In this document: positions 3,437 to 50,995 of the stretch, one piece after another | Position numbering within the stretch: the first letter of the stretch is position 1 | Layout of the letters: every line of letters starts with the position of its first letter | Source of the DNA: a virus | DNA length: 64,000 nt | Strand: one strand, 5' to 3' | IMG/VR virus record: IMGVR_UViG_3300021518_000005 | Coordinates: 19,228-83,227 of that record | Position numbers and translations under genes: made by a program | The notes under the pieces: generated by a model | The model's database searches: none | The model's input: only the letters and a program-made list of their open reading frames with translations | What the model was told of the DNA's origin: nothing

Positions 3437-4417
3437 TCATACATCCTTATGAATACAGACAAGATACGTTGATACGCCAGTGGGTCTATCACTCTCCAAG
3501 AATGCCCCATCTGGTAGCTTTTCAGCGATACCACCAACCGCATCAAGCCATGTACGAAATGCCACCGCTTTTTTTGTCGCCTGGAAGAATGGCGATGCGC
3601 TCATGACACTTACCATTTTTCCGCCATGCTTAAGTAGATCATACATATGCTGGACATGGGCAACATCTTGTAATTGCTCGAATGGCGGATTAGCAATGAT
3701 TCGATTATAGATACCAGGCTGATCGAATTCCATAAAATCATCAGCAATCAGCACATGGCCTTTCAGCTCAAGGATTTCGCGCAATCGCCAATTACACTCG
3801 ATAACATCAAGCCGCGCATCAGGATAGGTAGATCGCACCTGATCGGCAATACTTCCTTTGCCTGCACTTGGTTCCAACACACGCATACCTGACTGAATAT
3901 CTGCAAGCCACAACATCCGCGTAATAACCGATTGCGGCGTTGGGAAATAGCCTGGAATATCTAGGCCGACTAAGGCGCGCTCCCGTTGCACAATCTCACG
4001 TTCACGATCTGGCACCTGCGGCACATCCTGGGCTAACGCTAGGAGCATGACACGAGCAGCATCATACGTATGCTCATTCAGGCCCAACGCAAGCACTTTT
4101 GAATACGAATCATAGTGCGGCTTTGGACATTCTCCGTAGGTGCAAAGTAATTCCACGGCTGCCTTGGTTTTGACTTCTGCCAGCAACGACGGCACAATAC
4201 CAATGTCGTGCGCCCGTGCTAGCCCGCGTAGCAATGCTTGCAGCTGCTCCAATATATCAGCTTCGCGCTCCATAGCATCAATGATACGCATGCGTCGCGC
4301 CGTAGGCCGCTGCTGCGCTGTGCTGCTATTTCGTTTCTGCTGAATGGTTTTGTCAAGTGTCTGAGCAGCTTTGTATAGCCGCTCAGACACCATTGACGTG
4401 CGTTGTGTTGTGGTCAT
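3437..4417 (-). CDS. SAM-dependent (N6-adenine type) DNA methyltransferase-like protein
   Basis: YFPTP, VLEPSAGKG (motif I), IANPPF (motif IV). Confidence 0.8.
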   Translation of the reverse strand: MTTTQRTSMVSERLYKAAQTLDKTIQQKRNSSTAQQRPTARRMRIIDAMEREADILEQLQALLRGLARAHDIGIVPSLLAEVKTKAAVELLCTYGECPKPHYDSYSKVLALGLNEHTYDAARVMLLALAQDVPQVPDREREIVQRERALVGLDIPGYFPTPQSVITRMLWLADIQSGMRVLEPSAGKGSIADQVRSTYPDARLDVIECNWRLREILELKGHVLIADDFMEFDQPGIYNRIIANPPFEQLQDVAHVQHMYDLLKHGGKMVSVMSASPFFQATKKAVAFRTWLDAVGGIAEKLPDGAFLESDRPTGVSTYLVCIHKDV

Positions 4418-5505
4418 CGTAAACTCATCGGCATAATCACATGGACATAATCGCTCATGTTACCAACAGGACGCACAACAAGCGGCTGTGTGCTACTTTG
4501 CGTCTCAATAGACACTGTTTGCGTATCAAGTCGTGCTAGCACTTCCAGGAAGTAGAGTACGTTAATGGCAATAACCCCAACACCAGTAACGACAGCATCA
4601 ACATCACCTTGATTATCGCCCACCTCAGCAGCATTAGCACTCAACGTAATACCATCCGATGCCATTTCGAGCTTGATAACGTTTTGCGCATTGACTGCAA
4701 ACAACTTCGCAAGATTGACCGCTCGAATGAGTGCAAGCCGATCAACTACTGCCCGCGCCGTATACGAATCCGGCAGAATACGGCGGAAATCGGGATATTT
4801 TCCCTCGATTAGCCGAGACATGACTTGTGTCTCGTTGTCACTAAAAAAGACCTGATTAGCTGTCATGGCAACATGGCACGTATCGCCATGTAAGACTGAT
4901 GCAACGAGGGCCACGGTGCGCGCCGGAATAATGATCGGCGCATCCTCTTCGCCCTCAACTGCCAGCGTCTCTACGGCCATGCGAAAACCGTCTGCTGCTG
5001 CAATACTCAGTGCATTGTTGCGGCGCTCTAAAAGCACGCCAGCGAGCACGGGGCGGCTATCATCAGTTGCCGCTGCAATACCGACGCGCTCAAATGCATG
5101 CAGCAGTAACGCGCTAGGAAATGTATCTACAAAATCAGTCGGCATCGCGGGAACGGATGGAAACTCATCAGCATCAATACCCCTAATGCTTGTCTTAAAT
5201 CTTGATGCCTGTACCTGCAATGTTGCTTTTGTATTATCCCATGCCAGTGTCACGTCACCCTCTGGCAGCGCAGACACGACATCGGAGAGAAGTTTGAACG
5301 GAACAGTACCAGACCAATCCATAGTACTACGCGCCTGTAGTTTTGTGGTAATAGCCGTGTCGAGATTAGTACTACTCAGCGTTAACGTACTATCCTCGAC
5401 GCGCATGAGTACATTTGAGAGTACCGGCAACGTCGTTTTACCTGCGACCGACCGACCGACCAAGTTCAATTTTTTCTTAAACTCACCTTGTTGCACCGTT
5501 GTCAT
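4414..5505 (-). CDS. dnaN: DNA polymerase III beta sliding clamp
   Basis: 363 aa; LPVLSNVL, STNLD, SRPVLAGV, AADGFRMA, SRLIEGKYPDF, C-terminal VIMPM. Confidence 0.95.
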   Translation of the reverse strand: MTTVQQGEFKKKLNLVGRSVAGKTTLPVLSNVLMRVEDSTLTLSSTNLDTAITTKLQARSTMDWSGTVPFKLLSDVVSALPEGDVTLAWDNTKATLQVQASRFKTSIRGIDADEFPSVPAMPTDFVDTFPSALLLHAFERVGIAAATDDSRPVLAGVLLERRNNALSIAAADGFRMAVETLAVEGEEDAPIIIPARTVALVASVLHGDTCHVAMTANQVFFSDNETQVMSRLIEGKYPDFRRILPDSYTARAVVDRLALIRAVNLAKLFAVNAQNVIKLEMASDGITLSANAAEVGDNQGDVDAVVTGVGVIAINVLYFLEVLARLDTQTVSIETQSSTQPLVVRPVGNMSDYVHVIMPMSLR

Positions 5506-18340: not shown

Positions 18341-19915
18341 CTGAATCGCACTGGGATTGCTGGTGCTGTCGCCGCCGTTATTGTTACTGTTGTTATTGTT
18401 CTCCCGCATGGTTCCTCGACTGATGCGCCTCCGCCTGTATTTGTGACAGCTCACGTCATAACGGCTACAGCAGAATTGACCACTACACATCACGAAGATC
18501 CTACAAACACGCCAGAAGCGCCTACAGCCACCGAAACAGCTACGCTAGAGCCAACACACACCACTGAACCTACAATCCCTCCTGGGCCGTCTGAGAAACC
18601 TACGGAAGTCGTTACAAGCACTGCTACGACCACGACAACAAATACCGTAGATTCGACAGCAACATCTACGGCTGCCGCAACTTTTACACCCACGTCAGAA
18701 GCCTCTATAACGCCCACAGAAACACCTACAGCGAGCGCCACGGCCACTACGACGCCCACGCCTACGGCGGTTCCTACAGCCACTCCTGTGGTGTTCCTGG
18801 AAACGTTTGACGGATTGCCATCACAACCATTAGCCTTCTCAAGCAGCCAATGGGATATTATGGCGCACAGCCGTGATCCGTTGTATCGACAAGTTCCTGA
18901 GCCAATGGATGCGCAACATGACGGTGCAACATGCGATGTCCATGGCGCGCACACGATCACAACCTACACACAAACCGCGTTCATCTGCCGTAATCATCTC
19001 ATGACGGCTATTAAGGGAACTGACTACGCGATTGTGTACCTTGCGCCTAATGCCATGCTCGATTGGTCGCAAAACACAGCTACACTGCGTTTTGACGTTT
19101 CAACCATGCGAACGACAAGCCGCGATTGGTGGGATATTTGGATCACGCCATGGGGCGATGTGTTGTCGTATCCCTCTGATGGATCGTTTCCCGATGGGAA
19201 TGGCGAGCCGCGCAACGCCATCCACATTCGCATGAATCAGTTCAACGGCAAGACCACGTTTAACGTCAATCAAGTCGTGAATTATGTCTCATCGCCGGTG
19301 CCTGGTTCCATTGTCGGTGGCCGCGTCTACGAGAATGTATTAACACCGGATTATGTGCGGCGCGACACGTTTGAGCTACGCCTATCGAGCACACACATCT
19401 CGTTTTGCATGCCCGACTATACTCACTGTTGGGCTGATAATCTACCGTTGGCTACGTCGCTCGACTGGAATAGCGGCGTGGTACAGATCGGTCATCACTC
19501 CTACAATCCGCTGAAGGGCTGCATCGCGGGGCGTACACCATGTCAGCCAAATACCTGGCATTGGGATAATGTCCGCATGGAGCCAGCATTGCCATTCCAA
19601 ATCATTCGCAGCGCGCCGCGTGCCGCATCGCTCACAATTACGAACGACACATTGACACTTGAGCGGCCTGCACCAGCAGGCGCTATCGTTCGATTTTTGG
19701 CTATCGGGAATGCTATCGAGGTGTCATTCGACGGTGGCAATACATGGCAACCAGCCGTCAAGCGTGAGCAGGAAAACAATCAGCCGGAACGGTTCAGCTC
19801 GTATTGGATGCCGATACCGGAAGGCACCACAGCAATCAAGGTTCGCGGCCAACGTTGGACAAGCAGCAGCGCAGGTGATTGGTGGGTTCACTCGCTCAGT
19901 GTGTGGGCGCGCTAG
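18341..19915 (+). CDS. membrane-anchored or secreted protein with Thr/Pro-rich linker and beta-rich domain
   Basis: TPT-rich linker; frame extends upstream of 18443 through a hydrophobic helix to CTG 18341, after AAGGAG; start uncertain. Confidence 0.7.
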   Translation: MNRTGIAGAVAAVIVTVVIVLPHGSSTDAPPPVFVTAHVITATAELTTTHHEDPTNTPEAPTATETATLEPTHTTEPTIPPGPSEKPTEVVTSTATTTTTNTVDSTATSTAAATFTPTSEASITPTETPTASATATTTPTPTAVPTATPVVFLETFDGLPSQPLAFSSSQWDIMAHSRDPLYRQVPEPMDAQHDGATCDVHGAHTITTYTQTAFICRNHLMTAIKGTDYAIVYLAPNAMLDWSQNTATLRFDVSTMRTTSRDWWDIWITPWGDVLSYPSDGSFPDGNGEPRNAIHIRMNQFNGKTTFNVNQVVNYVSSPVPGSIVGGRVYENVLTPDYVRRDTFELRLSSTHISFCMPDYTHCWADNLPLATSLDWNSGVVQIGHHSYNPLKGCIAGRTPCQPNTWHWDNVRMEPALPFQIIRSAPRAASLTITNDTLTLERPAPAGAIVRFLAIGNAIEVSFDGGNTWQPAVKREQENNQPERFSSYWMPIPEGTTAIKVRGQRWTSSSAGDWWVHSLSVWAR

Positions 19916-45701: not shown

Positions 45702-46415
45702 CTACCAGCATACAGACTCCTCTTTGCCGCTTGCCCACGCCATAACTGCACAATCAACAAAACTTTTGTAGCCCTGTACGTCGTTTTCAAACGCTGGCGC
45801 ATACACGGGAATGACATCGGTAACGGTGCGATGTCCACGACCCTGGATATACTCCGTTTCGATGAGATGGAACCAATCGTAAATACCGCTACGCCAGTCA
45901 GGATAATCGCGAAAGCGCCCGTGACATGCGCCCTGCCAAAATGGACTACGACCGGCACAAATGATATTCCCGATGTTATGTGTGTGTGTACCGTCTGCTT
46001 TCCAGCCCGCCCAACCTGAAGCTGTGCCAGCACTCGACTCCATAATAAAAAATGCAAGGGCTATCATCGGATTGATACCGTATTCTTTACCCGCTTTTAT
46101 CCAAAGGTTGCCCGTGCCGACAGCTGGCGACTGATACCGCGTCAAGATGGCCTCTATATCGGCTTCTGTGCCGCTTGGAGCGCCTTTCAGCACCACAGAG
46201 CCTTCATGTGTCTCTGGCGGCGCTACATCCTCCTGAAGCGGTTGAACGACCTCAACAGCAACAACAGGCTGTGGTTGCTGGTGTGTCAACAACCAGCAAC
46301 CAGCAATACATACAATTAGTGTCAGCCACAATACAGAAGAAGACTCGCGTGGTGCAGGCTGCGCCGCAAGCAAGCCAAAATAGACAATATCATCATCAAT
46401 GTCCCAATTATCCAT
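45702..46415 (-). CDS. membrane-anchored glucosaminidase/lysozyme-like muralytic protein
   Basis: TM helix; YGINP..ALA...ES..G, NIGNI, Y..W..GI, I..YAP. Confidence 0.75.
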   Translation of the reverse strand: MDNWDIDDDIVYFGLLAAQPAPRESSSVLWLTLIVCIAGCWLLTHQQPQPVVAVEVVQPLQEDVAPPETHEGSVVLKGAPSGTEADIEAILTRYQSPAVGTGNLWIKAGKEYGINPMIALAFFIMESSAGTASGWAGWKADGTHTHNIGNIICAGRSPFWQGACHGRFRDYPDWRSGIYDWFHLIETEYIQGRGHRTVTDVIPVYAPAFENDVQGYKSFVDCAVMAWASGKEESVCW

Positions 46416-46980
46416 CGACACTCCTCTCAATCGTAGGCACAACCCGCCATCCATGCAAAATGGGCGAATGGCCTGCAATAAGATGGCACAGTTCCTCAAA
46501 GACAAGGCCATGATCATGAGCAAATGCGTACACATCCGCAATGTTGCTGTAGAGTATACCGTCCGGCCCCAATAACGATAGTCCCGTTTGTCGATCTGAA
46601 CACTGGCACACTGCCAATGGTACAATCTGATCGGCGCGTACATCTAATAATGCCCGTAGGCGCTCATATAATTCCTGGACAAAGACAACAACATGCCCGT
46701 GACGCGCTACCATGTCACGGCGATACTGATGTTGCTCTTCCAATAACTCCCGCAATCGATTATCCATCATCCCCTCGTACATCCTGCCTAACAAATGCCG
46801 ACACAGCACCATAACATGACACAAATTTATTGTCAAGTCTAATATCCATAGTGTGTATATTCCGTTCAAATTACACGATACAGAGCACGATAACAGGTGT
46901 GTGTTTTCGCACCTGCCTTCAGCGCGTGTGTAAAAACATACATGGCACTAGGACGCCATGCGCCGAAGAGAAATAGCGTT

Positions 46981-47150
46981 ATTCCGCATCACAATGCGGG
47001 GTGTGGAAACGCACAAGGGGGGGTGTGGGAATCCACACTCCAATAAATAAGGAAGCAGACATGATCATACAGACATGATCTTTGTTTGCATGCGGCAAAT
47101 GCATCGAACCTGCCGCGCTGCGCTTGGCCGCTCGCTGCGCTCACGCAAAA
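46981..47150. repeat. origin-like region B, related to region A
   Basis: attccgc.tc.caatgcg..gtgtggaaacgc shared with 9047-9078; CAGACATGATC x2; gcgctgcgcttg..cgctc.ctgcg shared with ~9317-9345. Confidence 0.65.
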
Positions 47151-47392
47151 ACGTTCCGCCATTTTTCTTTTTTCTGTCTAAGGCGTAATCAGCATGCTCA
47201 AGAAGAGACGTATGTTCGTCGTTACTTCAATACTGTGGATGCTCTGTTCACACAACTCTTCCAGGCTGTACAGAAAGGCTCAGAATTAACAGAACGGGTA
47301 TATATGGTATCTCTGGATACGCAGTTCGACAGAATGGCTCTCAGCGCGTTTCAGGCACTAGCAAATTCGTTCAAAATTACTCGCAATTTCAT

Positions 47393-47421
47393 TTGACAAT
47401 ATCTTACCGACATGGTAAGAT
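47393..47421 (+). promoter_or_regulatory. promoter/operator copy 13, upstream of the RNA-guided nuclease
   Basis: TTGACA-17-TAAGAT; TCTTACC-GACAT-GGTAAGA. Confidence 0.85.
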
Positions 47422-47428
47422 GAGATGT

Positions 47429-49009
47429 ATGAAGATGAAGCGAGCGCCACGACCTCACACAATTGAACGCACGTACAAGTACCGCGTGTACTTAACACCG
47501 CATCAAGAACGCCTTATTGCCTCTTGGCAAGAGGTATTACACACCTTGCAGAGACGTGCAATTGTGGAGTATCGTGACTGGCTCAAGCATTCTAAGCAGC
47601 AACATGCGCTTGGATTGCAGCCAGAATACAAAGCGCCATCGTTTTTTTCATGGACAAAAGACCTGACACAGTGGCGGCATGATGATCTTGCTGTTGCTGC
47701 GGTGCCTTGTGAAATTGAGCGAGCCATACTGAGGCGTGTGTATCTCGCCTATCAAGCCATGTGGCAGAAATGGAAGCAAGGCAAGGAGGCGTGGCCGAAA
47801 TATGCACGACATAGCAAGGATATTGGTTTAACGTTTCAGGGTACTCATCGTGGTACACGTCTGCTTGCTGACACAGGGCGAATCCGACGATGGGTATTAG
47901 CTGGAAGTGGTGAACTTGGCACCATCAAGGTTCGCATGCATCGACCATTACCGGCAGGAGTCATTGTTAATCAAGTGCATTTGACGCCATCCGCCGATGG
48001 ATGGCATGCCTCGTTTACTTGCACTATTCCGGCTGTGGATGAATCATTGCCATCGACAGGCATGCAGATCGGTGTTGATCTGAACGTCAAGCACGATGGT
48101 GATGTGCAACAGGTTGCTGCTGTCAGTGATGCACGCCTGTATAAGCAGATCAGTCATCTCAAGCGCAATATGAAATTACTGGCGCATTTACAGAAAATGG
48201 CATCAAACCGGCGCGTGCATGCAAACGCTAAACACGCTGATCCTGCCAGTAAGCGCACGGCTAAACGTAAAGCACGAATTGCCAAAATCCACCAGCGCAT
48301 TCAACGGCAACGAGAGCATACGCAGCAGTATATTGCCAAGCGCCTTGTTGATAGTGCTGATGTGATTGTATTCGAGCAACTGAATCACACGGCGATGCGC
48401 AGTAGTGGCAAGAAAAAACGCAGTAAACAGGCAGAGTATATCGAGCCAGTATTGCCAACAAAAAAGAAGCGGGTTAAGCTTGGTTCAAAAGCGGCAGCCC
48501 GAAAACGAAAACGCGGCCTTAATCGTGCATTATCAACTGCTGCACCAGGTCGATTAATTGCCTTAACGAAAGAAAAGTCAGCCAAGGCAAGGCGTGATGT
48601 GCGTATGGTGCCAGCACACAATACATCACAGATGTGTTCAGTGTGTGGGGATATTAACAAGCATCAGAAAAAGACACTTGATATTCGTGCATGGACATGT
48701 GCCAAGTGTGGCGCACAGCACGATAGAGACATTAACGCGGCTCGGAACATTCGAGCACGCGGGTTAGGCGAAGAACCTACGTTCAGTGGGGGATTGCGCG
48801 GAGAGGCTGCTGCACCTCGGTGCGAACGGCAGTCGAAGGATAGTGATACGTCATTATCTGAGTACCGCGAAGTGGTTCAACCACAGGTGGTGAGAAACAC
48901 CGCCGATCACATACATCAACATACGACAGCAACGCTTGTTCGCAACTCGCGACGGAAAACACGCATTCCACAAGTTGCGGGACAAATGAGCTTTTTTGAT
49001 CACGTTTAG
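47429..49009 (+). CDS. tnpB: TnpB-derived compact type V (Cas12f/n-grade) RNA-guided nuclease, 526 aa
   Basis: TYKYRVYLT N-terminus; RuvC-I GVDLN, RuvC-II VFEQL, CSVC/CAKC zinc finger, RuvC-III DRDINAARNI; adjacent CRISPR array; no tnpA nearby. Confidence 0.9.
   Translation: MKMKRAPRPHTIERTYKYRVYLTPHQERLIASWQEVLHTLQRRAIVEYRDWLKHSKQQHALGLQPEYKAPSFFSWTKDLTQWRHDDLAVAAVPCEIERAILRRVYLAYQAMWQKWKQGKEAWPKYARHSKDIGLTFQGTHRGTRLLADTGRIRRWVLAGSGELGTIKVRMHRPLPAGVIVNQVHLTPSADGWHASFTCTIPAVDESLPSTGMQIGVDLNVKHDGDVQQVAAVSDARLYKQISHLKRNMKLLAHLQKMASNRRVHANAKHADPASKRTAKRKARIAKIHQRIQRQREHTQQYIAKRLVDSADVIVFEQLNHTAMRSSGKKKRSKQAEYIEPVLPTKKKRVKLGSKAAARKRKRGLNRALSTAAPGRLIALTKEKSAKARRDVRMVPAHNTSQMCSVCGDINKHQKKTLDIRAWTCAKCGAQHDRDINAARNIRARGLGEEPTFSGGLRGEAAAPRCERQSKDSDTSLSEYREVVQPQVVRNTADHIHQHTTATLVRNSRRKTRIPQVAGQMSFFDHV
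48906..48946 (+). ncRNA. putative tracrRNA anti-repeat inside the effector 3' end
   Basis: ATCACATACATCAACAT is a 15/17 match to the repeat reverse complement; CTTGTTCGCAAC complements the repeat 5' end with one bulge. Confidence 0.6.
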
Positions 49010-49025
49010 CGCATTCTGGTGCAGG

Positions 49026-49244
49026 GTTGCGACAAGATCATGGTGATGAATGTGATTGAAAGAAGCTGAACGGCATGGGCATTCCCTCACCATCAGCGGC
49101 AGTTGCAACAAGATCATGGTGATGAATGTGATTGAAAGTGGCGAGAAGTTGCACCATTACTTGTGCAGTTAGCAAGTTGCAATACGGTGTTACTGATATA
49201 TGTGATTGAAAGAACAAAGTATTGTTGATATATGTAATTGAAAA
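49026..49244 (+). CRISPR. mini CRISPR array: three 37-nt repeats plus a partial fourth, two spacers
   Basis: GTTGC(G/A)ACAAGATCATGGTGATGAATGTGATTGAAAG at 49026-49062 and 49102-49138; degenerate copy 49176-49212; spacers 39 and 37 nt. Confidence 0.9.
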
Positions 49245-49446
49245 ATCAGCATGATACAGCAACAAAAACATCACATCTAAACATGAGTCCTACACATGTA
49301 AAATATTGGTTAATTTCTTTGCCATTACTCGATATGTCGCATTGGAATGCGGTATCATAAAGATGAGTACATTGTTATACAATTGACTTGACATTGGTTT
49401 TAGATGTGATATAGTTGTCGAAGTTTCATTTAGCCGTGTCGGGAAC

Positions 49447-49779
49447 ATGATTACACTACAACGTATTACGTGGGGCAAGCGAGCACAGATTGCAGTAACG
49501 GCACAGGGCCGACGCACGGATGGGCCGGTTGAATTGGTTGTTCGCCGTCCTGGACAAGCGTTAGACACGGCACCTCTTTGTACGGTGCCGTGTACGGTAT
49601 TTAGTGCGGCGAGCGGTCGGCAGTCGTGTGTATCGGTGCATGCAGAGTTGGACACCAGCACGCTAGAGGCGAATACCTATTACGCTTTTGGCGTGTATCA
49701 GTACACAAGCGGATGTGTGAAGGCATTACTGTTGGGGGCGTTTTTTGTCGAGGAGCCAGCGTATGAAGCGACTGCGTAG
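49447..49779 (+). CDS. hypothetical protein
   Basis: follows a TTGACA promoter at ~49388. Confidence 0.5.
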   Translation: MITLQRITWGKRAQIAVTAQGRRTDGPVELVVRRPGQALDTAPLCTVPCTVFSAASGRQSCVSVHAELDTSTLEANTYYAFGVYQYTSGCVKALLLGAFFVEEPAYEATA

Positions 49780-50251
49780 TCACACGGGAACCATCATCCC
49801 CGATCACGATGTGCCGCCGTGGATTATGGAGCGCATGGCAGCATACGTCCATGCGCTGTGCTTATTTGGCTGGCGATTCTACGTTGGGATGTCAGACGAT
49901 CCAGACGGTGAGGGCACCGCTGATGCGGTTGTCTTGGTTGACAGTAAATACTTTACGGCGACGTTCCTGTTTTGTAGGGACATTGCCAATGATGAGGATG
50001 GGGCGCATATCATCCTGCATGAACTCATGCACGTTGCGTTATCGCCGTTATGCGATGCGTTTGATCAATCTGTGCGTCTGTTTGTGGATGAGTACAGTAA
50101 TCATGTGCGTGTTGCCGAGTTGCGGGAGTATGGCGAAGAGCGCACGATTGAAAGTCTGGTTCGTGCGCTTAGGCCGGTCTTAGAGCCGCATGTCAAAAAG
50201 TACATGCGTGAGCAGCGTCAAGCAGCTACGCCTACAAAGAAGGTGGCATAA
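49763..50251 (+). CDS. HExxH metallopeptidase-like protein
   Basis: IILHELMH motif. Confidence 0.6.
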   Translation: MKRLRSHTGTIIPDHDVPPWIMERMAAYVHALCLFGWRFYVGMSDDPDGEGTADAVVLVDSKYFTATFLFCRDIANDEDGAHIILHELMHVALSPLCDAFDQSVRLFVDEYSNHVRVAELREYGEERTIESLVRALRPVLEPHVKKYMREQRQAATPTKKVA

Positions 50252-50381
50252 TGGAAGATACCACGTATCCAGTAGTGCAGTTCCTTGAACTGTACGGCCA
50301 TGTGTTTATTGCAGGTGCTGTAGTGTTTTGGGTATGTCTTATTATCGCATGTGTACTCCTAGTTCGATGGATTGTAAAGCA

Positions 50382-50714
50382 TTAAGCATCAGCTGTCTTT
50401 TTCTTTGTCAGGCGCGGCCCTTTCCGCGTCTTCCGCAATCGGTAGTTGGGTGCTGGCATGGATTCTAGCTCGGCTTTGGGGACGAACCATGCCATTGCCC
50501 CTGGCCTTCCAAGATCAACTTGATAGGCTGTCTTGAAGACACCGCGTAAGCAGTAATGCTTGACGGTGTCTACCGCAATATTTACGTCATGGCCCTCGGC
50601 CTTCCATTTCGCATTGAGAAACTCCTGTGCTTCTCGTGTCGAAAGATCGGTCGGATCTTTCCGGCCTTGTGTGACCTCGACGGGCGGACGCTCATGTTTT
50701 TTATACTGTGCCAT
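50382..50714 (-). CDS. HTH_17-like DNA-binding protein
   Basis: LSTREAQEFL...TVKHYCLRG...W.VP. Confidence 0.6.
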   Translation of the reverse strand: MAQYKKHERPPVEVTQGRKDPTDLSTREAQEFLNAKWKAEGHDVNIAVDTVKHYCLRGVFKTAYQVDLGRPGAMAWFVPKAELESMPAPNYRLRKTRKGPRLTKKKTADA

Positions 50715-50745
50715 TATTCCTCCTGTTAACACGTTTTCGGCAAGC

Positions 50746-50775
50746 ATTGTACCGTAGTGGTAAGTCTGTTGTCAA
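50746..50775 (-). promoter_or_regulatory. promoter/operator copy 14 (degenerate), divergent from the terminase promoter
   Basis: TTGACA-18-TACAAT; TTGTACC-GTAGT-GGTAAGT. Confidence 0.6.
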
Positions 50776-50995
50776 GGTGTATTTGACAGCGGGCTTTGCC
50801 GTGCTAGGATAGATATGTATTGTACATTGTATAAACAGGAAACTCATGCCTCGCCGAAATAGTAACGCTAAGAACCAGAAAGAGTCCTACAAACCGCTGA
50901 ATGTGGTGGCTGTTCTTCGCTCGCTTCCTTCTCTTGGTTCTGGCAAACGATTGACCGTGCCAGCCAAGCACACCGAATCGACTTCGTGATGCTAC

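Follow-up and report, generated by a model that had tools for sequence, protein, structure and literature searches.

A candidate tracrRNA within the coding tail of a phage-borne TnpB-like nuclease next to a small CRISPR array

A TnpB-like nuclease encoded directly upstream of a small CRISPR array raises the question of where the RNA that would connect the protein to its guides is encoded. Such a locus is found in a 64,000-nucleotide stretch of viral DNA, hereafter the window, which spans positions 19,228 to 83,227 of IMG/VR record IMGVR_UViG_3300021518_000005, an 83-kb virus record with an estimated completeness of 85%. Here, an open reading frame (ORF) for a TnpB-fold RNA-guided nuclease, the effector (47393-49009), terminates just before the first repeat; all window features described below lie on the plus strand unless stated otherwise. 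A sequence-only reading of this DNA had proposed that an anti-repeat resembling that of a tracrRNA (trans-activating CRISPR RNA) is hidden inside the last part of the effector coding sequence. The present analysis supports this proposal, on the strength of pairing statistics, a repeat that does not fold by itself, a disordered protein tail, a conserved RNA scaffold and a matched anti-repeat in a related locus. In particular, the anti-repeat and the scaffold probably constitute a tracrRNA that descends from a TnpB guide RNA and is transcribed together with effector and array, a reading to which we assign a probability of roughly 0.7. Its in silico basis consists of the complementarity, the specificity of this complementarity, the conserved scaffold and the disordered tail; expression, processing, loading onto the nuclease and a requirement of the duplex for cleavage are inferred.

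The array is a minimal one. It begins 16 nt past the effector stop codon (49007-49009), and its 37-nt repeats, starting at 49026, 49102 and 49176, qualify it as a CRISPR array. Specifically, repeat 1 (49026-49062) is followed by the 39-nt spacer 1 (49063-49101), by repeat 2 (49102-49138), which is 97% identical to repeat 1, and by the 37-nt spacer 2 (49139-49175), after which repeat 3, which is degenerate (49176-49212, 73%), and repeat 4, which is partial and overlaps it (49208-49244, 62%), form a decayed distal end (49176-49244). The repeat by itself is unfolded, with a folding energy of -3.5 kcal/mol (z 0.34) that is equalled by 117 of 200 shuffled versions, and therefore needs a partner.

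A suitable partner is present within the effector gene. The 5′ arm of the anti-repeat (48904-48922) pairs with repeat positions 15-33 and, within it, the segment 48906-48922 ATCACATACATCAACAT is complementary at 15 of 17 positions to repeat positions 15-31 (49040-49056 and 49116-49132). Following an insert of 12 unpaired nucleotides (48923-48934), placed opposite 3 nt (ATC) of the repeat, the 3′ arm CTTGTTCGCAAC (48935-48946) forms 11 pairs with repeat positions 1-11, leaving one bulged T. The coordinates and letters that the sequence-only reading had given for both arms and for the insert, as well as for the heptamers TGCGAAC (48821-48827) and GTTCGCA (48938-48944), are all correct. It had also placed the anti-repeat on the array strand, within some 85 codons after the third RuvC motif (RuvC-III), in agreement with a site that occupies codons 504-518 of the 538-codon ORF, about 60-70 codons past the RuvC-III aspartate D446.

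The complementarity was measured against shuffled controls. In a gapped alignment of the reverse-complemented repeat to both strands of 45893-50800, with the array excluded, the best score (31.5) falls at 48906-48946 on the plus strand and is reached by none of 300 shuffled repeats (mean 21.7, maximum 28.5). When G:U pairs were allowed in a search of the 261-nt tail, the anti-repeat scored 44.5, again with none of 1000 shuffles reaching this value (mean 26.4, maximum 39.0). Moreover, cofolding of 48896-48952 with repeat 1, a check that the sequence-only reading had recommended, gives a change in free energy (ddG) of -23.3 kcal/mol, to be compared with -9.2 +/- 3.4 for 200 shuffled repeats, none of which does as well; with repeats 2 and 3 the values are -21.3 and -19.6 kcal/mol (0 of 200 shuffles in each case). 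The pairing is also specific, in that the 17-mer repeat core, searched with up to 3 mismatches, has three sites in the 64-kb window against a chance expectation of 0.31, these being the two intact repeats and the anti-repeat, the only inverted copy of the core in the window. The locus thus offers what is asked of a tracrRNA, namely a repeat-complementary anti-repeat near the array. In addition, where the anti-repeat departs from repeats 1 and 2 at its two mismatches, the older, degenerate repeats 3 and 4 match it in part, and this would look like the pattern expected of an anti-repeat tracking a drifting repeat.

The RNA that precedes the anti-repeat is predicted to fold into a scaffold, itself encoded in the coding tail (48797-48904). 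A closing helix, P1 (48797-48801 with 48865-48869), encloses two hairpins (48805-48834 and 48838-48859), and two further hairpins, at 48872-48884 and at 48886-48904 (H4), follow on its 3′ side. The 316-nt stretch 48770-49085 folds with -109 kcal/mol (z -3.47), none of 100 shuffles being as stable, and its minimum free energy (MFE) structure comprises P1, the four hairpins and a duplex formed in cis between anti-repeat and repeat 1. By contrast, a caveat of the sequence-only reading, that GTTCGCA at 48938-48944 could pair with TGCGAAC at 48821-48827 as a leader-type inverted repeat, did not hold up: this helix of 7 bp is unused in the predicted fold, has no counterpart in the two related loci described below, and was rejected also since about two such pairs are expected in 261 nt by a rough estimate.

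The same scaffold recurs in relatives of the effector gene. Two homologous loci, L002 and L003, were read as DNA, both on IMG/VR phage contigs (one metagenome). Their effectors share 39% (L002) and 32% (L003) identity with that of the window, and their arrays, of 8 and 5 repeats, respectively, lie directly downstream of the effector on the same strand and are followed by terminator-like hairpins. Both loci carry the scaffold motif GCGCRGRGAGG...CTGNGWAC, which, among 246 loci compared, is found only in those of the family. Scaffold alignments made with MAFFT and RNAalifold were discarded as inconsistent with the structure, and the helices were compared by coordinates instead. This comparison reveals a compensatory change in P1, where L002 and L003 have CGCAG/CUGCG in place of the CGCGG/CCGCG of the window. 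H4 keeps 7, 6, 7 and 7 of its 7 pairs in the four copies (window, L002 and two in L003), with changes on both sides of the helix at four positions. In L003 the ORF stops at 4420-4422 and the two scaffold copies lie at 4457-4532 and 4804-4879; because both are past the stop codon, the scaffold is conserved as RNA and not as protein. A covariation sought at the protein level, between residue X of V-X-G-E-G and residue Z of V-N-Z-E-A, was rejected: each fixed second codon base would pair with a free third base, and any pair of residues is compatible.

Downstream of the scaffold, L003 repeats the arrangement of the window with other letters. A segment at 4873-4903, directly 3′ of H4 of the second scaffold copy and 55 nt before the array, is complementary to the different repeat of L003 itself and has the two-arm architecture seen in the window; its score of 43.5 is reached by 22 of 1000 shuffles and its ddG of -19.6 kcal/mol by 7 of 200, and the MFE fold of L003 uses this pairing. 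When the segments following H4 were cofolded with the repeats of all three loci in a 3 x 4 matrix, those of the window, of the second L003 copy and of L002 each paired best with their own repeat. For the window segment, ddG is -20.3 kcal/mol with its own repeat, the two others giving -3.7 and -1.2; the corresponding values are -16.3 as compared with -11.5 and -8.7 for L003 copy 2, and -8.4 as compared with -5.5 and -4.6 for L002, where 84 of 200 shuffles are as good. The covariation of repeat and anti-repeat among homologues, which the sequence-only reading had named as a test, is therefore seen in one of the two loci read, L003, and not in L002. Four DNA runs (two samples from two studies) contain the window locus in identical form, with zero variants, and so provide no natural covariation.

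As to the protein, the effector belongs to the RNA-guided TnpB family. Its longest frame has 538 aa (524 aa in the database form P0002, which starts at 47435), and residues 28-456 cover model positions 1-389 of 389 of the NCBIfam profile NF040570 (guided_TnpB) with 176.2 bits, the cut-off being 100. The RuvC triad D229, E328 and D446 and the zinc-finger residues C415, C418, C436 and C439 are invariant in an alignment of 25 family sequences, so that profile score and the D-E-D triad with its CxxC...CxxC zinc finger both place the protein in this family. An AlphaFold2 (AF2) model has a pLDDT (predicted local distance difference test) value above 85 across most of residues 20-460; in the tail, residues 465-538, the value is below 50, and about 30 in the part encoded by the folded stretch 48770-49085, as in a region predicted to be disordered. 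Tail length varies within the family, in line with a scaffold conserved as RNA, since 8 of the 25 proteins stop no more than 32 residues past the RuvC-III aspartate and 16 run on for 60-135 residues, and the alignment displays little amino-acid conservation across the stretch that encodes the anti-repeat. The 3′ arm encodes L-V-R-N, and VRNS occurs in the tails of 6 of 24 aligned homologues. The family as a whole is small, with about 26 protein clusters in a collection of 5.8 billion proteins.

Several observations weigh against a tracrRNA in the coding tail. No match to Rfam was obtained for 46500-50000 at E-values up to 1, and a consensus scan called no internal promoter for a separate tracrRNA in the window. 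An nhmmer search of the 3′ regions of the other retrieved TnpB loci with a profile of the four scaffold copies matched only L002 and both L003 copies and, because the next match has an E-value of 0.77, similarity of the scaffold to omegaRNA regions, which harbour the guide RNA of TnpB, is not established. As for the relatives, the significance of the L003 anti-repeat is modest (p about 0.02-0.035), and the L003 repeat can also fold on itself (-14.1 kcal/mol). In L002, the tail has the scaffold and no significant anti-repeat, 220 of 1000 shuffles scoring as well, and a 23-nt inverted repeat-core probe run with up to 3 mismatches over the 75-kb record of L002 retrieved only the seven repeats. 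Since just two homologous loci were read as DNA, covariation rests on a single positive case. Finally, part of the conservation of the tail lies at the protein level, as the frame stays open through the RNA and 8 of 25 family proteins end in the motif Q-x-x-[LMFI]-[FW].

Other explanations of the inverted repeat copy were weighed as well. It could act in cis as a leader structure, pairing with repeat 1 of the same transcript and not, as a trans-acting tracrRNA would, with every repeat; in this form it could create a processing site or define the first CRISPR RNA (crRNA), in the manner of an omegaRNA-like natural single guide, with the other crRNAs being independent of it. The MFE fold indeed pairs the anti-repeat with repeat 1 in cis, the scaffold of L002 abuts repeat 1 without a significant anti-repeat, and a partial repeat-like segment GTTGCGGGACAA (48974-48985) can pair locally with the 3′ arm to give an alternative cis hairpin. 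Nevertheless, repeats 2 and 3 pair about as well as repeat 1, with none of 200 shuffles matching either; the window repeat cannot fold alone, so that under a cis-acting structure spacer 2 would have no structured handle; and the L003 anti-repeat lies 55 nt before its array, behind a scaffold copy with its own -10-like box TGGTATAAT. A purely cis-acting leader is thus unlikely. The sequence-only reading had itself suggested folding in cis as a natural single guide, and of this the predicted pairing with repeat 1 stands, while such a fold is indistinguishable from pairing in trans.

The segment might instead be a functionless relic, a piece of repeat in inverted orientation that stayed behind when array or leader was rearranged and was carried along in a weakly constrained tail. 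Its two mismatches, bulge and 12-nt insert would suit decay, as would the tiny, decaying array with its 2 spacers and degenerate repeats 3 and 4, the lack of Cas1 in the record and the fact that L002 manages without a clear anti-repeat. A relic would hardly be expected, however, to lie exactly 3′ of a conserved and covarying scaffold, to have a repeat-matched equivalent at the homologous place in L003, where the repeat is different, or to have the letters of its 3′ arm recur as VRNS in 6 of 24 homologue tails, and we regard this origin as quite improbable. Alternatively, the tail could be conserved as protein only, being a flexible linker with a motif like those that bind the sliding clamp, with repeat complementarity as a by-product of composition. 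Up to 16 nt before the array the frame stays open, and Q-x-x-[LMFI]-[FW] in 8 of 25 family proteins far exceeds a background of 0.004 per tail; yet none of the composition-preserving shuffles attains the observed pairing, L003 has this scaffold in non-coding sequence, and the tail is predicted to be disordered with little amino-acid conservation across the anti-repeat, which makes this last explanation highly improbable.

If the tail does encode a tracrRNA, as we favour, the 3′ part of the effector gene, some 250 nt (about 48790-48950), would play a double role, specifying both the disordered C-terminal tail and the tracrRNA. The latter would consist of the folded scaffold, from P1 through the hairpins to H4, and end in the two-armed anti-repeat, which would pair with positions 1-33 of each 37-nt repeat, so that its final 4 nt, together with the spacer, stay unpaired to serve as guide. 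Duplex and scaffold would then load the TnpB-like nuclease, in the way of Cas12n and Cas12f and of the one-piece omegaRNA of TnpB. A single transcript, starting near 47393-47421, would probably serve as effector mRNA, tracrRNA and pre-crRNA, and the tracrRNA would be cut from the 3′ part of the mRNA, as is described for TnpB omegaRNA and Cas12n tracrRNA. The origin that the sequence-only reading had put forward, an omegaRNA split into tracrRNA and crRNA, would rest on the overlap with the 3′ end of the ORF and on the TnpB-like protein, the scaffold having no detectable sequence similarity to the 3′ regions of the other TnpB loci compared. A pseudoknot between the last 5-6 nt of the repeat and the scaffold, looked for by eye, had no consistent partner in the three loci.

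A further possibility, and a doubtful one, is that the three loci are snapshots of the split of omegaRNA into tracrRNA and crRNA within one family, their ORF-embedded tails also encoding a linker that ends in a hook for the beta clamp. L002, whose scaffold runs into repeat 1 without a real anti-repeat, would still be omegaRNA-like; the window would have its scaffold inside the ORF, ending in a nearly full-length two-armed anti-repeat; and in L003 the scaffold would have left the ORF, acquired a -10 box of its own and been duplicated together with the array. In L002, H4 and the first repeat are 39 nt apart, this repeat beginning within the ORF, and the weak pairing after H4 spans 10-15 bp. A segment of L002, CUCUG..UCAAC, would satisfy the lenient anti-repeat rule for Cas12n-type systems given in 10.64898/2026.03.27.714800 (6 of 10 bases among the final 16 of the repeat), yet statistically it amounts to nothing. 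By direct reading, L003 has -10-like boxes before both scaffold copies, TGATACAAT at 4420-4428 and TGGTATAAT at 4767-4775, and a consensus promoter scan that also required a -35 element called nothing at either; the boxes suggest that the scaffold is an independent small-RNA gene there. Between 4425 and 4800 of L003, copy 1 is followed by an apparent decayed array, whose units end in GGGGCAAC and which includes a degenerate repeat (4683-4729) with a score of 55 when compared to the main repeat. Between this main repeat and the segment after H4 of copy 1 there is no pairing (ddG 0.0). The arrangement has the appearance of a module of scaffold and array that was duplicated in tandem. Were the snapshot view true, one transcript would yield a nuclease, a tether to the phage's own sliding clamp, a tracrRNA and crRNAs.

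The putative tether is a short motif at the very end of the effector. The C-terminus reads QMSFFDHV (48980-49009), and the consensus for beta-clamp binding is QL[SD]LF. The pattern Q-x-x-[LMFI]-[FW] occurs within the last 15 residues of the effector and of P0004, P0007, P0008, P0010, P0012, P0014 and P0021, and in the L002 ORF a QLHMF stands 13 residues before the end. A DnaN is encoded by the phage itself, on the minus strand of the window (4414-5505). In complex predictions, effector residues 495-538 with this DnaN obtained a score of 0.36, the best of 3 controls being 0.00; at least 50% of contacts agree between runs and the pLDDT of the partner is at least 40. Of 78 solved complexes 51 reach the pass mark, as do 2 of 108 mismatched pairs; at scores up to 0.60, the range of the present one, it is reached by only 5 of the 78 solved complexes and by all 4 passing mismatches (of 180). 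Since clamp-peptide complexes have already been solved, the pass may come from likeness to known complexes. The motif thus resembles a beta-clamp binder, and the predicted complex lends weak support to an association of tail and DnaN.

Within the phage genome, the effector ORF is flanked by minus-strand lysis and replication genes and by a plus-strand terminase and portal module. A promoter-like site at 47393-47421 (TTGACA, 17 nt, TAAGAT, with TG preceding the second hexamer; 10 of 12 positions agree with the consensus) stands just upstream of the likely start codon at 47435; it is a hint only, as the region has 4 such sites against 3.8 expected. A second such site, at 49388-49415 (TTGACA, 16 nt, TATAGT, with TG; 11 of 12), is located between the array and the next plus-strand genes. 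A T-run (48992-48997) follows the partial repeat-like segment at 48974-48985; it was rejected as a tracrRNA terminator, the promoter and terminator scan having called no terminator between effector ORF and array in the window. The effector gene is present in one copy in the 83-kb record, where neither Cas1 nor a Y1 TnpA was found, the latter search being limited to Y1 transposases. A transposon-borne TnpB would be recognized by a nearby TnpA or by several copies with defined ends; here, Y1 is absent and the copy is single. Spacer 1 is matched at 34 of 39 positions by a low-depth contig of 587 nt from the same sediment sample (run X2), with unrelated flanks; this site may be a protospacer in a co-occurring element, a single case in which no protospacer-adjacent motif (PAM) is readable. 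Against GenBank phages, spacers 1 and 2 gave no usable match (best E-values 0.6 and 2), and a tblastn search with P0001 gave 9 records, every one below 27% identity.

Scans for further members recovered, in viral sequences, L002 and L003 only. A metagenome scan with a generic RuvC-III motif brought up 80 distant TnpB loci (at most 30% identity) and a genome scan another 80, mostly cyanobacterial transposon TnpBs, with none from the family in either. Among these other loci, three distant TnpB-like genes on metagenome contigs have small arrays of 3-6 repeats, spaced by about 61-68 nt, directly after them (L098 4010-4245, L121 3888-4230 and L160 1052-1211), and may be other intermediates between transposon and CRISPR system. 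Four loci of Lyngbya sp. PCC 8106 (L185, L186, L196 and L221) represent one multicopy TnpB element; in three of them the sequence is the same as far as ...GGAGTACGTCAC and differs from there on, marking the right end of the element and the start of the guide, and the stop of the TnpB ORF falls within the final hairpin of the putative omegaRNA. In L164 (IMGVR_UViG_2510065010_000001), a tandem array with a 12-nt period and at least 39 in-register copies (4282-4750) lies downstream of a distant TnpB-like match.

With regard to known systems, the layout of a tracrRNA in an ORF tail is already known for Cas12n and TnpB, and the window is a new example of it and no new principle. As described in PMC12216341, the tracrRNA of Cas12n overlaps a disordered ORF tail, and 10.64898/2026.03.27.714800 uses the drop in pLDDT after RuvC-III to locate Cas12n tracrRNAs. 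According to these papers, Cas12n (type V-N, formerly V-U4 or C2c9; RdCas12n, PDB 9J09, and AcCas12n) has in common with the window a miniature TnpB-derived effector and a downstream array. The window also has the hallmark of Cas12n, a disordered C-terminal tail (465-538) whose coding sequence holds scaffold and anti-repeat (48797-48946). Cas12n has an A-rich 5′ PAM (AAN). The effector differs from Cas12n in that the family profile matches 9j09_A with 127 bits in the C-terminal half only, the PADLOC model for Cas12u4 (98.9 bits) scores below those for Cas12f (132.7) and Cas12u2 (124.7), and the fold is nearest to TnpB. Moreover, the window system is phage-borne, its two-arm anti-repeat covers 33 of 37 repeat positions, and many tails of the family have a motif like those that bind the clamp.

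The nearest relatives in profile and fold are the TnpB proteins of IS200/IS605 elements. A fold search returned ISFba1 TnpB, ISDra2 TnpB and AsCas12f as best matches, with LaTranC at rank 11 and Cas12p at rank 13, and in TnpB, too, the scaffold of the guide RNA begins past RuvC-III and shares sequence with the 3′ end of the ORF. In the window, by contrast, the guide would come from a CRISPR array by way of a repeat:anti-repeat duplex and not from the flank of a transposon end. V-U2 (C2c8) provides the best CRISPR-specific NCBIfam model for the effector (NF038192, 88.7 bits), far below the curated cut-off of 350, so that a type V-U2 assignment fails. Cas12p ('Cas12 hacker'), according to 10.1101/2025.01.20.633832, is a miniature Cas12 that derives from phage; its tracrRNA is long, its repeat measures 37 nt, and its C-terminal domain is disordered and is termed a TnpB legacy. 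Its similarity to the window effector is weak (E 0.005, besides the low fold rank), and Cas12p needs thioredoxin.

A further comparison is with TranC (transposon-CRISPR intermediate) systems. For these, functional splitting of omegaRNA into tracrRNA and crRNA is the published model (Jin et al., Cell 2025, cited by PMC13565253 and by 10.64898/2026.03.27.714800), and the two citing sources describe TnpB-grade effectors of 300-600 aa with small CRISPR arrays, including the phage-borne CauTranC9. The window agrees with TranC in its TnpB-like effector, its adjacent array and a scaffold split from the guide, and LaTranC is among the PDB matches. The TranC clades tested in 10.64898/2026.03.27.714800 are reported to have no unstructured tail holding a tracrRNA, whereas the window tail is predicted to be disordered and holds the tracrRNA candidate. 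By the profiles applied, the effector would be a member of neither Cas12n nor V-U2; going by its predicted fold it appears TnpB-grade, and it fits the description of TranC. The locus thereby offers a concrete guide-RNA design for a phage-borne effector of TnpB size, namely scaffold (48797-48904), anti-repeat (48904-48946), repeat and spacer, and a comparison of the window with L002 and L003 could reveal the extent of repeat:anti-repeat pairing that effectors of this kind require. It would add a lineage outside Cas12n in which the tracrRNA is still in the ORF tail, and agrees with the published view in which the splitting of TnpB guide RNAs has given rise to type V systems on repeated occasions.

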